DNA of 64,000 nucleotides from a virus, in the UHGV virus genome UHGV-1493261. One strand, given 5' to 3'. Below, piece by piece: positions 3,912 through 50,459 of this stretch. Numbering within the stretch: the stretch's first letter is position 1; the number at the start of each line of letters is the position of its first letter. A program made the position numbers and the translations under genes. Below the pieces are notes generated by a model. The model made no database searches. It worked only from the letters and a program-made list of their open reading frames with translations, and had not been told where the DNA came from.

Positions 3912-4074
3912 ATATTACTCTCGTGTGTTGGTTAACATGACATACATATTATTTCGCGTGCATGTTTAGACCAAATAAATTAATTTTGCTGTTGAATAAA
4001 AACTGCTTTCTTGTTGAACAATGGCGTGGTATTATACGAGTTGTGAGCGTTAGCGAACAACGAGTATTTGTTTT

Positions 4075-4094
4075 ATGAGCGAAGCGAATAGGAT
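4075..4094 (+). repeat. 20-mer ATGAGCGAAGCGAATAGGAT, copy 1
   Basis: Exact 20-nt match to the reverse complement of 49249-49268. Both copies are directly preceded on the + strand by TATTTGTTTTA. Confidence 0.7.
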
Positions 4095-4101
4095 TAATAA
4101 A

Positions 4102-4140
4102 GATTATTATCTTTAATAAAGGTTATTATCTTTAATAAAG
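4102..4140. repeat. AT-rich tandem direct repeat (2 x 19-20 bp, plus partial third copy)
   Basis: TTATTATCTTTAATAAAG at 4104-4121 and again at 4123-4140; partial copy ATTAATAAAG at 4093-4102. In the 360-bp intergenic region upstream of gp45. Confidence 0.7.
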
Positions 4141-4272
4141 TCCATAAATGCCGAAGGCATTTATTATAACGCGTAGCGCAATTTGCCACTTGTTCTATAA
4201 GCAAAACACAGCGATACTAGATTGCGTCAAACATGACTTGAATCCCCCACTATATTTTGAGGATACATACAA

Positions 4273-4941
4273 ATGCAAGAGATCACTCTCTCCGAACGTA
4301 CACTTCAGTTGCTGGCCAACTTTGAGACCATCAACCCATCTATCGTTCTGACACCGGGCAAGATGCTGCGCAGTATTAATGATTCTTCTACTGTGATCGC
4401 CGTGGCGCAGATCGAAGAAGACTTCCCGTTTGAGTTCCCGATTCTGGACCTGACCAAACTTCTGGCCATCCAGCGCCTACCTTCCTTCAAAGGTGCCAAA
4501 GCCGAATTTCATCAGGACTACATCCTGTTGAAAGGTGAAAGCTCTCAACTGCAGTTCTGGCGCTCCGCCAAAGAACTGACTGTGGTCCCGGCCGACACCA
4601 TCGAACTGCCTTCCGTCGACTTTGAAGCGATCATCACTCCAGAGAAGATGAAAGAACTGACCCGCGCCTGTTCTACCCTCGGACACAAGACTGTGCGCCT
4701 GGTTGCTCAGGGTGGCAAAACACGCCTGGTTGCAACCACCACTACCCTAGACAACTCCAACAACTACACTGTTGAGCTGGGCGAAACCGCACTGCCGGAC
4801 TTCGTAATGCCGCTGGATGTTGCCAACCTGAAAATGATCGAAGGCAACTACACTCTGCGTGCATGTGCTGATCTACAGATGGTGAACTTCCAATCATCCG
4901 ACGCGACGATCAATTACTTCGTCGGCGCACAGATTGAGTAA
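4273..4941 (+). CDS. gp45: sliding clamp (gp45-like)
   Basis: 222 aa, GAGGA RBS. N-terminus LSERTLQLLANFETINPSIVL parallels T4 gp45 LSKDTTALLKNFATINSGIML. Immediately followed by the clamp loader genes. Confidence 0.75.
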   Translation: MQEITLSERTLQLLANFETINPSIVLTPGKMLRSINDSSTVIAVAQIEEDFPFEFPILDLTKLLAIQRLPSFKGAKAEFHQDYILLKGESSQLQFWRSAKELTVVPADTIELPSVDFEAIITPEKMKELTRACSTLGHKTVRLVAQGGKTRLVATTTTLDNSNNYTVELGETALPDFVMPLDVANLKMIEGNYTLRACADLQMVNFQSSDATINYFVGAQIE

Positions 4942-4961
4942 TCAATCTCCAGCCTGATGCT

Positions 4962-5000
4962 ATAATGTGTGGGCGGGGCGTTCCCCGCCTATTTGAAATG
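4962..5000 (+). promoter_or_regulatory. TATAAT / GC hairpin / ATTTGAAAT cassette upstream of gp44
   Basis: TGcTATAAT (4962-4967), hairpin GGGCGGGGCGTTCCCCGCC (4972-4990), TATTTGAAAT (4991-5000), then GAGG RBS and ATG 5022. Confidence 0.5.
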
Positions 5001-25549: not shown

Positions 25550-25557
25550 TATTTATA
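25550..25557 (-). promoter_or_regulatory. T4-type late promoter TATAAATA
   Basis: Exact TATAAATA on the - strand, 35 nt upstream of the ATG at 25514. Confidence 0.6.
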
Positions 25558-49140: not shown

Positions 49141-49174
49141 ATTGAGTTCCGGTTGTCAAACAAGGATTTGAAGG

Positions 49175-49182
49175 TATTTATG
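49175..49182 (-). promoter_or_regulatory. late promoter-like CATAAATA
   Basis: 7/8 match to TATAAATA on the - strand, again exactly 35 nt upstream of the gp5-like ATG at 49140. Confidence 0.45.
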
Positions 49183-49248
49183 CGCAGCTGATTTTGCCTT
49201 ATATACTATAGGAAGCTCTGCTTCCGTTCATTTTATTTGTTTTATTCG

Positions 49249-49268
49249 ATCCTATTCGCTTCGCTCAT
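49249..49268 (-). repeat. 20-mer ATGAGCGAAGCGAATAGGAT, copy 2 (inverted)
   Basis: Reverse complement of 4075-4094, located in the 510-bp intergenic region between the gp5-like and zinc-ribbon genes. Confidence 0.7.
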
Positions 49269-49486
49269 CAAACCGCCCTATGCGGGCAGCACCATTCCAA
49301 TGCCATGGAGGCATAAGGGCGAGGCAATAACTGTACACCCCAGAACACTCCTTGAAAAATGGTATTTTACTGACAATCTGATTCAAAACAAACAAACACC
49401 AACAAATGACTCGGGAACAAGCCCATTATAGCAATTTCAGGTAAAGAGAGTGCGTGTTAACCGATTTTACAGTTAAGCCAATAAAA

Positions 49487-49504
49487 ATCCCGCCGAAGCG
49501 GGAT
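49487..49504 (-). terminator. rho-independent terminator (minus-strand orientation)
   Basis: ATCCCGC / CGAA / GCGGGAT with A-run 49483-49487 on the + strand, i.e. U-run on the - strand downstream of the minus gene ending 49653. Confidence 0.55.
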
Positions 49505-49652
49505 TACTGTTTCTTAGACAACCTGACCTTGAGGGCTTCGGTTAACAAGTCAAGATGCCATGGCATCGACTCGTTGATTTCAAATATGCTATAGCCGTGT
49601 AACTTCAATTCATCACACATCACGAAGTAGGATAATAAATCAGTTTCAAACA

Positions 49653-50459
49653 TTAAATGAAAATTTCATTAATACTATTGAATTCGATTTTGTGCTCCTT
49701 ACCACATTTCGGACACTTGATCGAACTCTTGTAGTGGATGCGCGGTATTTTGTGGAAGAAGTTCTTCGTAATGCTGTCAATAACATCTGATTCGATGTTA
49801 TCCTTCACCCACTCAACAAACGCTTCTTTCACACGGCGGCGCTCAGTAGCCTCTTCCGGAGTGATTCCGATTTCTTCAGGATTCTCAACCTTCCACACCT
49901 GACCGTCATCATCGTACAGACAGTCGATAAAGGTGGCCAGCATCATCTCAACGCTTGCAGCATCAGACAGTGCCGTAGCGTCCGAGAAGGAAGGTTGGCG
50001 CATCTTGAGGTGATATCCACCTGGCAAGTCAAACGTCTCCCGGAAGCCGTCCTGAGCAATGCATTTGACGTTGTTCAACGGGATAGGTAGAGTCAGTTCC
50101 TGCTCACAGGGAACCATCTGACGCTTTTCTTGACCATCTCCCAGATCGATCGTTTCTTCAATCTGATTATTGCACTTATAACGAATCTTCATCAATTCAC
50201 CGATGGAGATCATGCGCATGCGGATGAACACTTCCTCAACAACGCCGATTGGCAGTTTACTGAAAGGTGCGCCTGCATTTACACACTCGCTAAAGAGACT
50301 CTCCATCATGGCCGCGCGTTCTTCAATCGGCGTTTGCGGATCTGACACCTGAAGTAATAAAGTTTGTTGCCCCGCAGTAAAGGCGCGATATTTGATCACA
50401 GTAGGCCAAAAGTCGCTTTTATATGTCTTTTCTGTTCTGGGCAATGATGGTAAATTCAT
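49653..50459 (-). CDS. hypothetical protein with C-terminal zinc ribbon; possible baseplate hub component by position
   Basis: Start at minus ATG 50459 (GGAGAT RBS) inside track ORF ending 50573. C-terminal CPKCGKEHKIEF. Adjacent to gp5/gp25 on the same strand. Terminator at 49487-49504. Confidence 0.45.
   Translation of the reverse strand: MNLPSLPRTEKTYKSDFWPTVIKYRAFTAGQQTLLLQVSDPQTPIEERAAMMESLFSECVNAGAPFSKLPIGVVEEVFIRMRMISIGELMKIRYKCNNQIEETIDLGDGQEKRQMVPCEQELTLPIPLNNVKCIAQDGFRETFDLPGGYHLKMRQPSFSDATALSDAASVEMMLATFIDCLYDDDGQVWKVENPEEIGITPEEATERRRVKEAFVEWVKDNIESDVIDSITKNFFHKIPRIHYKSSIKCPKCGKEHKIEFNSINEIFI

Follow-up and report, generated by a model that had tools for sequence, protein, structure and literature searches.

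A sequence of 20 nucleotides (nt), ATGAGCGAAGCGAATAGGAT, is found twice in the 64,000-nt stretch of the virus genome UHGV-1493261 analysed here (the window), once upstream of the sliding-clamp gene gp45 at positions 4075-4094 on the plus strand and once, as an exact copy, upstream of the baseplate gene gp5 at positions 49249-49268 on the minus strand. The question raised by this pair is what it belongs to and what it does. The source is an Agtrevirus-like member of the Ackermannviridae with 92-96% identity to the phages SKML-39 and Ag3. A first-pass annotation had regarded the region upstream of gp45 as a control region, and had named a replication origin, binding sites for a phage regulator, the ends of an invertible or mobile segment and a leader peptide as candidate roles for the repeat. 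The region is indeed a control region, and the element is conserved in related phages. The 20-mer is the core of a small stem-loop, designated hp2, and this stem-loop is part of three paralogous, strand-specific folded non-coding elements of about 200 nt that are found before gp45 (site A), gp5 (site B) and gp6 (site C) in every Ackermannviridae genome examined. The favoured reading, given a probability of roughly one third, is that the elements may be origins or primer transcripts driven by early promoters and similar to oriF and oriG of phage T4.

The repeat is the core of a stem-loop

The pair is non-random, as had been argued in the annotation. No further match to the 20-mer was found in the window with up to three mismatches allowed, and none was found in 100 dinucleotide shuffles. 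The two copies remain similar over 25 nt, with one mismatch (4070-4094 against 49273-49249), and over about 33 nt at 91% identity. In complete Ackermannviridae genomes of IMG/VR the 18-mer core of the repeat occurs once or twice, and the many copies within coding regions that would mark a generic repeat were not found. The two copies are inverted relative to each other because each follows the direction of its downstream gene, plus for gp45 and minus for gp5.

The hp2 stem-loop consists of two closing pairs, a tandem G·A motif, two G-C pairs and a loop of 3-4 nt (GAGC-loop-GCGA). The tandem G·A is of the sheared type, with a 5'-Py-GA-Pu-3' context on both strands. Alignments were made across five genera, Agtrevirus, Limestonevirus, Taipeivirus, Kuttervirus and Miltonvirus, and the GAGC...GCGA core is unchanged in all of them. 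The base before GAGC covaries with the base after GCGA, a U-A pair being replaced by C-G. The loops found are GAA, GTA, AAC, ATA, TTT, TTCA and GTTA, most of them GAA or GTA closed by C-G. The distance between GAGC and GCGA is 3, 4, 13 or 18 nt among the copies. The apex of hp2 at site C has insertions of 13 nt (SKML-39) and 18 nt (Vi01), and the insertion in Vi01 folds as a helix of its own, GAGGG...CCCTC. A long-range pairing of the 20-mer with upstream U-rich runs, predicted in the minimum free energy (MFE) structure, is not kept in the alignments and was rejected. The arrangement GAGC-TGG-GCGA with three closing pairs is also found inside the gp45 coding sequence (4774-4784, plus strand); one such match is about what is expected by chance.

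Three paralogous elements in the Ackermannviridae

The third paralogue was found by scanning the window together with the remainder of the SKML-39 genome. Site C is outside the window, upstream of the baseplate wedge gene gp6 (SKML-39, NC_019910, 150,141-150,489). Searches of the same sequences with nhmmer profiles of sites A, B and C gave these three loci and no others, at approximately 34, 81 and 150 kb in the 160-kb genome of SKML-39. Sites B and C are homologous from end to end (E 9.5e-15, nhmmer), and site A has the hairpin hp1 in common with C and hp2 in common with B. Site C can accordingly be described as the hp1 of site A plus the pseudoknot and P3 core of site B plus an hp2 with an enlarged apex. 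In Kevin, a Serratia phage, A can still be aligned with B over some 270 nt with a score of 110, compared with 35.6 +/- 5.9 for shuffled sequences, and they have an exact 29-mer in common, TTGACCTTATCCGAGCGAAGCGAGTGATT.

Among Ackermannviridae records, 274 matched site A, 270 site B and 275 site C. The gene neighbourhood of sites A and B was identical in every record inspected. In distant relatives, 171 kb surrounding their homologues of gp45 and gp5 contained no G·A hairpin. A scan of metagenomes with the pseudoknot core gave nine matches, all chance matches in which the rest of the element was missing. Rfam 15 gave no match in the whole window at gathering thresholds, and in the two regions only chance-level matches below threshold (E <= 10). 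The search for tRNA and tmRNA genes found none. Such elements are not described in the papers on AG3 and CBA120 or in a 2024 review of the family, and that review has no mention of promoters, origins or regulatory RNAs; a literature search on Ackermannviridae transcriptomes, transcription start sites or non-coding RNA likewise found nothing. The three-copy family is previously undescribed.

Covariation and strand specificity

In the alignment of sites B and C, 96% of the cells at paired positions are in standard pairs, compared with 29-51% when the partners are slid by 1-3 columns. Six pairs are changed on both sides, and the covariation score was not reached by any of 500 shuffles. Stem S1 of the pseudoknot is CAGCC/GGCUG in site C, which is two double compensatory changes compared with site B. 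Stem S2, elsewhere CCAU/AUGG, reads CCCU/AGGG in the B and also in the C of Taipeivirus, and all S2 cells are paired. All seven pairs of helix P3 are paired in 100% of the cells, with double changes in two of them. Wobble pairs make up 27 of 300 cells and can pair on the gene-sense strand only, as is also the case for the G·U/U·G pairs of P3; since G·U pairs exist on one strand only, the fold is placed on the gene-sense strand. The fold of site A has an energy of -36.5 kcal/mol (z -5.2) on the plus strand, compared with -23.7 kcal/mol on the minus strand.

Hairpin hp1 is located 30 nt upstream of hp2 and contains the G·A motif of the hp2 type twice. The RNA has an MFE of -12.3 kcal/mol (z -4.84), and the DNA fold is identical. 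An inner compensatory change converts GAGC/GCGA to GAGU/ACGA. The outer stem is AUAC/GUAU at site A, AUUC/GAAU in Kevin and CUUC/GAAG or CUUU/AAAG at site C, and the Kevin hp1 has 3 nt added to both arms. At site A the outer stem overlaps the putative -10 hexamer and yet covaries, which restricts its formation to DNA or to a longer RNA. Taken together, the compensatory changes in the alignments support the predicted hp1, hp2, P3 and pseudoknot.

The variable flanks of hp2 are identical at 7-10 of 11 positions between A and B within a genome, and at only 1-8 of 11 positions at the same site between genera. The copies of hp2 thus evolve in concert within each genome, and the exact 20-mer is one example of this wider pattern. 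Either a common partner or gene conversion maintains their likeness.

Common layout of the elements

The order of the parts in the direction of the downstream gene is the same in all elements: a promoter-like module, hairpins, an AT-rich tract, a GC-rich patch of the CGCGCG type, and the downstream gene's own promoter. Positions in the window are given in Table 1.

Table 1. Positions of the element parts and adjoining signals at sites A and B of the window (aa, amino acids; nt, nucleotides; TRF, Tandem Repeats Finder)
Feature	Positions	Strand	Description
Site A	3912-4272		Divergent intergenic gap between the 123-aa phrog_4255 gene (-) and gp45 (+)
Putative promoter-like site of the divergent 123-aa gene (phrog_4255)	3946-3974	-	TTGGTC (3974-3969), 17-nt spacer, TAATAT (3951-3946)
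Putative promoter-like module of element A	3995-4035	+	A-tract AATAAAAAC (3995-4003), TTTCTT (4007-4012), 17-nt spacer, TATTAT (4030-4035)
hp1	4034-4067	+	AUAC-GA-GUUGU-GA-GC-GUUA-GC-GA-ACAAC-GA-GUAU; two tandem G·A motifs
hp2 of element A	4071-4093	+	UUUUAU-GA-GC-GAA-GC-GA-AUAGGA; the 20-mer is 4075-4094
AT-rich tract	4094-4140	+	2.5 copies of the 19-nt TTAATAAAGATTATTATCT; period 19, 96% matches (TRF)
Palindrome	4144-4164		ATAAATGCC-GAA-GGCATTTAT; 9 pairs, 3-nt loop, followed by TATAAC; terminator-like hairpin
GC-rich patch	4170-4179	+	CGCGTAGCGC
Proximal promoter-like site of gp45	4190-4218	+	TTGTTC, 17-nt spacer, GATACT
Site B	49141-49503	-	Between the terminator of the gp26/gp51-like operon and gp5; all on the minus strand
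T4-type late promoter of gp5	49175-49182	-	CATAAATA; unchanged in all genera
Hairpin	49211-49225	-	GGAAGC-AGA-GCUUCC, then UAUAGUAUAUAA; compensatory A-U to U-A in Taipeivirus (GGAUGC/GCAUCC)
hp2 of element B	49250-49273	-	The second 20-mer copy is 49268-49249
Helix P3 of element B	49272-49290	-	GCUGCCC-GCAUA-GGGCGGU; MFE -12.1 kcal/mol
Pseudoknot of element B	49292-49314	-	S1 AUGCC/GGCAU; S2 CCAU (S1 loop) with AUGG
Putative promoter-like module of element B	49330-49369	-	A-tract (49369-49364), TTTTTC (49359-49354), 18-nt spacer, TACAGT (49335-49330)
TTTACC-N9-TATAAT block	49425-49445	-	Just past the gp26/gp51 terminator, about 90 nt upstream of the element B promoter-like module
Rho-independent terminator	49486-49505	-	Gp26/gp51-like operon upstream of site B; also annotated as terminator in LIMEstone1

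The promoter-like module of A, B and C consists across the genera of an A-tract, YTTTYC, a spacer of 17-19 nt and TAnnnT. Within TAnnnT the invariant bases are limited to positions 1 (T), 2 (A) and 6 (T), as in a -10 hexamer, and at site B TAYRGT is kept in all genera. Of the hairpins, hp1 is present in A, C and the B of Kevin, the H-type pseudoknot and helix P3 in B and C, and hp2 in all. Every element in every genus has an AT-rich tract after hp2, about 20-50 bp long and with 75-90% A+T compared with a genome mean of 51%; the tracts were compared by composition only. The GC-rich patch that follows is found at site A of all genera, at site C and at site B of Kevin. As its own downstream promoter gp5 has CATAAATA, gp6 has a similar site and gp45 has TTGTTC-17-GATACT.

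The AT-rich tandem repeat of about 2.5 copies at site A, noted already in the annotation, was recovered with a period of 19. Each 19-nt unit forms an AT hairpin, AAAGAT-TATT-ATCTTT. The number of units is 1.5 in SKML-39, P46FS4 and LIMEstone1, 2.5 here and 3.5 in A221, and these differences among near-identical phages indicate recent slippage. The unit is absent in Taipeivirus, Kuttervirus and Miltonvirus, where different AT-rich hairpins are found instead. The palindrome after the tract is likewise as annotated. It is present in Agtrevirus, Limestonevirus and Kuttervirus and missing from Taipeivirus and Miltonvirus; the terminator scan called it on the minus strand only, and the tail on the plus strand is UAUAAC. 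At the proximal promoter-like site of gp45 both hexamers are kept and the spacer is constant in length and variable in sequence. Kevin has TTGTCA-16-TATAAT at this position, which matches the consensus at 11 of 12 positions.

The annotation had also placed TATTTGTTTTAT before the 20-mer in both regions. It is present on the plus strand at both (4065-4076 and 49234-49245), at site B with TCG between it and the inverted 20-mer, and it differs in site B of SKML-39 and site A of LIMEstone1. The flanking TATTTGTTTTA is not conserved in SKML-39 or LIMEstone1 and was rejected as a part of the element; at site B it corresponds to the T-rich tail, read on the plus strand, of the 49211-49225 hairpin.

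The late promoter of gp5 is annotated as a putative late promoter in the LIMEstone1 record, and late promoters have been predicted for gp5 and gp6 of phiSboM-AG3 (PMC3121705). Those of gp5 (CATAAATA) and gp6 (GCTAAATA) depart from TATAAATA, the sequence that precedes other late genes of the window (at 25557, 35694 and 55301). Downstream, the two have about 20 nt in common (ATAAATAYCTTCAAC), which is expected from the paralogy of B and C.

Possible function

The promoter-like module is of a non-late type. It precedes the late genes 5 and 6, which have their late promoters 3' of the element, and the main mRNAs therefore do not have the element as their leader; it looks instead like an early transcription unit of its own. 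Were the elements origins, the host RNA polymerase would start at the promoter-like module early in infection and transcribe the folded region into the AT-rich tract. The transcript would remain annealed to its template in this tract as an R-loop and prime leading-strand synthesis, as at T4 oriF and oriG and perhaps oriE. The G·A hairpins and the pseudoknot would fold in the RNA, in the displaced non-template DNA strand or in both, and would either hold the bubble open or be recognised by the initiation machinery. The near-identity of hp2 within a genome and its drift between genera may reflect a common reading machinery, or recombination that homogenises the copies.

The T4 origins offer the closest comparison. 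At oriF (uvsY) and oriG (gene 34), replication is primed by promoter transcripts that remain annealed within an AT-rich region (PMC3016281). OriG is located before a late gene, oriE uses an early promoter, and the UvsW helicase removes origin R-loops (PMC3016281). The present elements resemble these origins in that a promoter, here a putative non-late one, is followed by an easily melted AT-rich tract, in being present in few copies, and in a genome that encodes the UvsW helicase, the uvsW gene in fact adjoining site A. In T4 an origin promoter can precede a late gene and read in its direction, as the promoter-like modules of B and C do here. The T4 origins differ in having no common motif and no known folded module, while here three copies share hairpins and two share a pseudoknot. 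The origin proposed in the annotation is thus viable as a promoter with hairpins and an AT-rich tract, of the oriF and oriG type. It is not viable as an array of iterons: close relatives have between 1.5 and 3.5 of the 19-nt units, other genera have none, and the units are products of slippage; they are not conserved iterons, unlike the 12-nt repeats of T4 oriE.

There is a leaning towards the displaced DNA strand folding as well as, or instead of, the RNA. This is because of the overlap of the covarying hp1 outer stem with the putative -10 hexamer at site A, the C(GNA)G triloops in the majority of copies and the context of the tandem G·A. Triloops of the C(GNA)G type and tandem G·A pairs in a Py-GA-Pu context, including d(GCGAAGC), reportedly form unusually stable DNA mini-hairpins (work of Hirao and co-workers). 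GCGAAGC is found literally in hp2, at 4079-4085. The likeness does not extend to all copies, some of which have AAC, ATA, TTT, TTCA or GTTA loops or long insertions.

Several observations weigh against an origin. The promoter-like modules score under the thresholds of consensus scans, and sites B and C have short AT-rich tracts of 15-25 bp. When folded alone as RNA, hp2 is marginally stable at site A (-2.3 kcal/mol) and is not the MFE structure at site B, and the case for it therefore rests on comparative evidence. The GC skew has no signal at 4 kb or 49 kb, although such a signal is often missing from T4 origins too. Clean covariation in a pseudoknot points more typically to a functional RNA than to a primer. 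The analogy in position to T4 oriE, near gene 5, and to oriF, at uvsY and uvsW, may be a coincidence. The T4 origins, finally, have no common sequence motif and need no folded RNA (PMC3016281).

Other systems are less similar. RNA II of ColE1, the product of a sigma-70 promoter, is a structured RNA a few hundred nt long, and it depends on its fold whether the hybrid persists and primes DNA synthesis. The present elements have no sequence or structural similarity to RNA II, no equivalent of the antisense RNA I was seen, and the replisome here is of the phage T4 type. In domain II of the hammerhead ribozyme (G8 A9 - helix II - G12 A13) a tandem G·A is similarly stacked on a G-C helix in the order GA-helix-GA. 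In one IMG/VR contig (3300045988_142553), hp2 of site B and its 5' flank read CUGAUGAGCGAAGCGAA (CUGAUGA-GC-GAA-GC-GAA), literally positions 3-14 of the hammerhead core, which is restricted to that lineage and was judged to be coincidental. A hammerhead ribozyme was rejected, as only G8, A9, G12 and A13 are kept. C3 and G5 are not (UUAUGA, CACGA, UACGA, UCCGA), G5 being U or C in site A and other genera, and position 15.1, which should be A, is U or G here. Neither a helix III nor a cleavage site could be drawn, and there was no Rfam hammerhead match at E <= 10.

A cis-acting regulator of its own transcript, comparable to the put sites of HK022 and the nut sites (boxB) of lambda, is the main rival, possible but more tentative; it fits the clean covariation of RNA type and the lack of MotA and AsiA. 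Hairpins in the nascent early RNA would bind RNA polymerase or a phage or host factor, and termination-resistant elongation, or processing or stability of the RNA, would let the early promoter reach gp45-44-62-regA, gp5 and gp6. The elements are folded, covary on the sense strand and are located just 3' of a promoter-like module; as in HK022 put there are two hairpins with a common motif, and as with nutL and nutR the short hairpin elements are paralogous, follow early promoters (here putative), are oriented with their operons and are mutually inverted on the genome. Terminator-like hairpins follow the element at A (4144-4164) and B (49211-49225), and the concerted evolution fits a single common binding partner. 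Anti-termination has also been proposed for the delayed-early genes of ViI-like phages (Ackermannviridae), which have no MotA or AsiA (PMC3184105). However, two of the three elements precede late structural genes with late promoters 3' of the element, so that the main mRNAs exclude it, and gp45 has its own proximal promoter. The downstream hairpins have no U-tract on the sense strand, and hairpin 4 is missing from site A of Taipeivirus and Miltonvirus. Only three copies exist, and the large early-gene blocks have none. At site A the putative -10 is overlapped by the hp1 outer stem. The tandem G·A stem is neither a boxB pentaloop nor the two-stem fold of put, and there is no N-like gene and no boxA. 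The elements could instead be three paralogous trans-acting small RNAs of about 125-200 nt, with one identical segment serving as seed or protein-binding site as in Qrr or CsrB/C, but this is unlikely. Each has its own promoter-like module and a folded body, at A and B with a terminal hairpin followed by U/A-rich sequence, and several GGA motifs are found in or beside loops. A short identical segment in otherwise divergent paralogues of one genome is the pattern of small RNA families with a common seed, such as Qrr1-5 of Vibrio. The seed of Qrr1-5 is single-stranded, however, while the common segment here is base-paired and kept as a structure. No site has a canonical Rho-independent terminator on the sense strand, site C has no terminal hairpin, and no complementary target stands out in the window. 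The elements are, moreover, always close to the next gene and tied to its orientation, which is not required of a trans-acting RNA.

The remaining explanations concern the 20-mer itself. That it is an operator in duplex DNA, bound by a transcription or replication protein of the phage, is very improbable. In its favour are the invariant GAGC and GCGA blocks, the concerted evolution of the copies within a genome, and a 'putative middle promoter' that is annotated in LIMEstone1 over the 20-mer on the opposite strand. That assignment was made by pattern matching to T4 consensus sequences only (PMC3296691), and ViI-like phages have no MotA (PMC3184105). The flanks change by compensatory substitution, one inserted apex forms a helix of its own, and the spacing of 3-18 nt between GAGC and GCGA would not be tolerated by a duplex operator. 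Of the regulator binding site proposed in the annotation, what stands is a plausible site on a folded single strand. A leader peptide, the ends of an invertible or mobile segment, and a chance repeat can practically be dismissed. The 20-mer does start with ATG here and could encode a small peptide (MSEANRI...), but this codon is replaced by ACG in Taipeivirus and Kuttervirus and by CCG in Miltonvirus. A leader peptide is therefore ruled out; there is also no Shine-Dalgarno sequence, and the peptides would be 8 and 13 aa long with different tails. The two copies are inverted on the plus strand, as the ends of an invertible segment would be, but they are co-oriented with their downstream genes, each site is present in 270-274 records with the same neighbourhood where inspected, there is no recombinase and a third copy exists. 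A chance repeat is excluded by the shuffled sequences.

An extension of the origin reading, which is speculative and distinctly improbable, is that the elements are sequence-specific sites of transcript-primed initiation which also act as built-in 'enhancers' of late transcription. With its 3' end held in the R-loop by the G·A hairpins and the pseudoknot, the early RNA would offer the clamp loader a primer-template junction on the side of the non-transcribed strand. This junction would share the orientation of the late promoters of gp5 and gp6, which are slightly off-consensus, and would be located shortly before them, and also before the clamp gene; gp45 would be loaded with the polarity needed by T4 late promoters. 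A specific polarity of gp45 loading is required by the late promoters of T4 (PMC2988020). If true, the coupling of replication to late transcription would be hard-wired into dedicated DNA or RNA elements.

In ViI-like phages, which are without MotA and AsiA, early promoters are not findable by informatics (PMC3184105). Three bounded, family-wide elements with a common hairpin, supported by covariation and each beside a promoter-like module, are concrete targets for mutagenesis and for the mapping of origins and transcription starts in a family of phages that is now widely used in biocontrol and therapy. Should they be origins, they would be the first in the T4 superfamily with a common signature in sequence or structure. 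Should they act as RNAs, they would form a new family of structured RNA, with tandem-G·A hairpins and an H-type pseudoknot, that is absent from Rfam.

Neighbouring genes and minor observations

At the divergent promoter-like site of the phrog_4255 gene the block GTTTAGACCAA is kept in five genera; the site itself is below the threshold of the consensus scan. The upstream region common to both divergent promoter-like sites contains a direct repeat, TTTGCTGTTGAATAA (3985-3999) and TTTCTTGTTGAACAA (4007-4021), with the copies 22 bp or two helical turns apart. The first copy is also found at site B of Kevin, and the two may be a protein-binding pair.

The TATAAY of the block at 49425-49445 is unchanged in all genera, and the spacing of the block does not fit sigma-70. 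A similar block, TTGAAC-N10-TATTAT, is found at site A (4014-4035, plus strand). TTGAAC-N9-10-TATAAT was rejected as a general class of phage promoter: the two sites and two chance matches were found in 64 kb, where 3.8 are expected.

The open reading frame (ORF) of 49 aa directly upstream of site B (phrog_9633; 49504-49653, minus strand) has a weak match to the baseplate hub assembly catalyst of the T4 gp51 type (E 4e-4). The small neighbouring proteins were rejected as partners of the elements, phrog_4255 having no assigned function and the 49-aa ORF being weakly gp51-like. An additional ORF of about 650 bp is found between gp45 and gp44 in YX22, PC3, PH4, SW16-7 and CAU_YEP3, and is absent at 4941-4965 here; it is annotated as a homing endonuclease in CAU_YEP3 and is outside the control region. 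Records of Enterococcus phage Efm 3-10 and of a Pseudomonas phage gave Ackermannviridae-like matches, for example 92% over 51 nt of site C, and are probably mislabelled or chimeric database entries.

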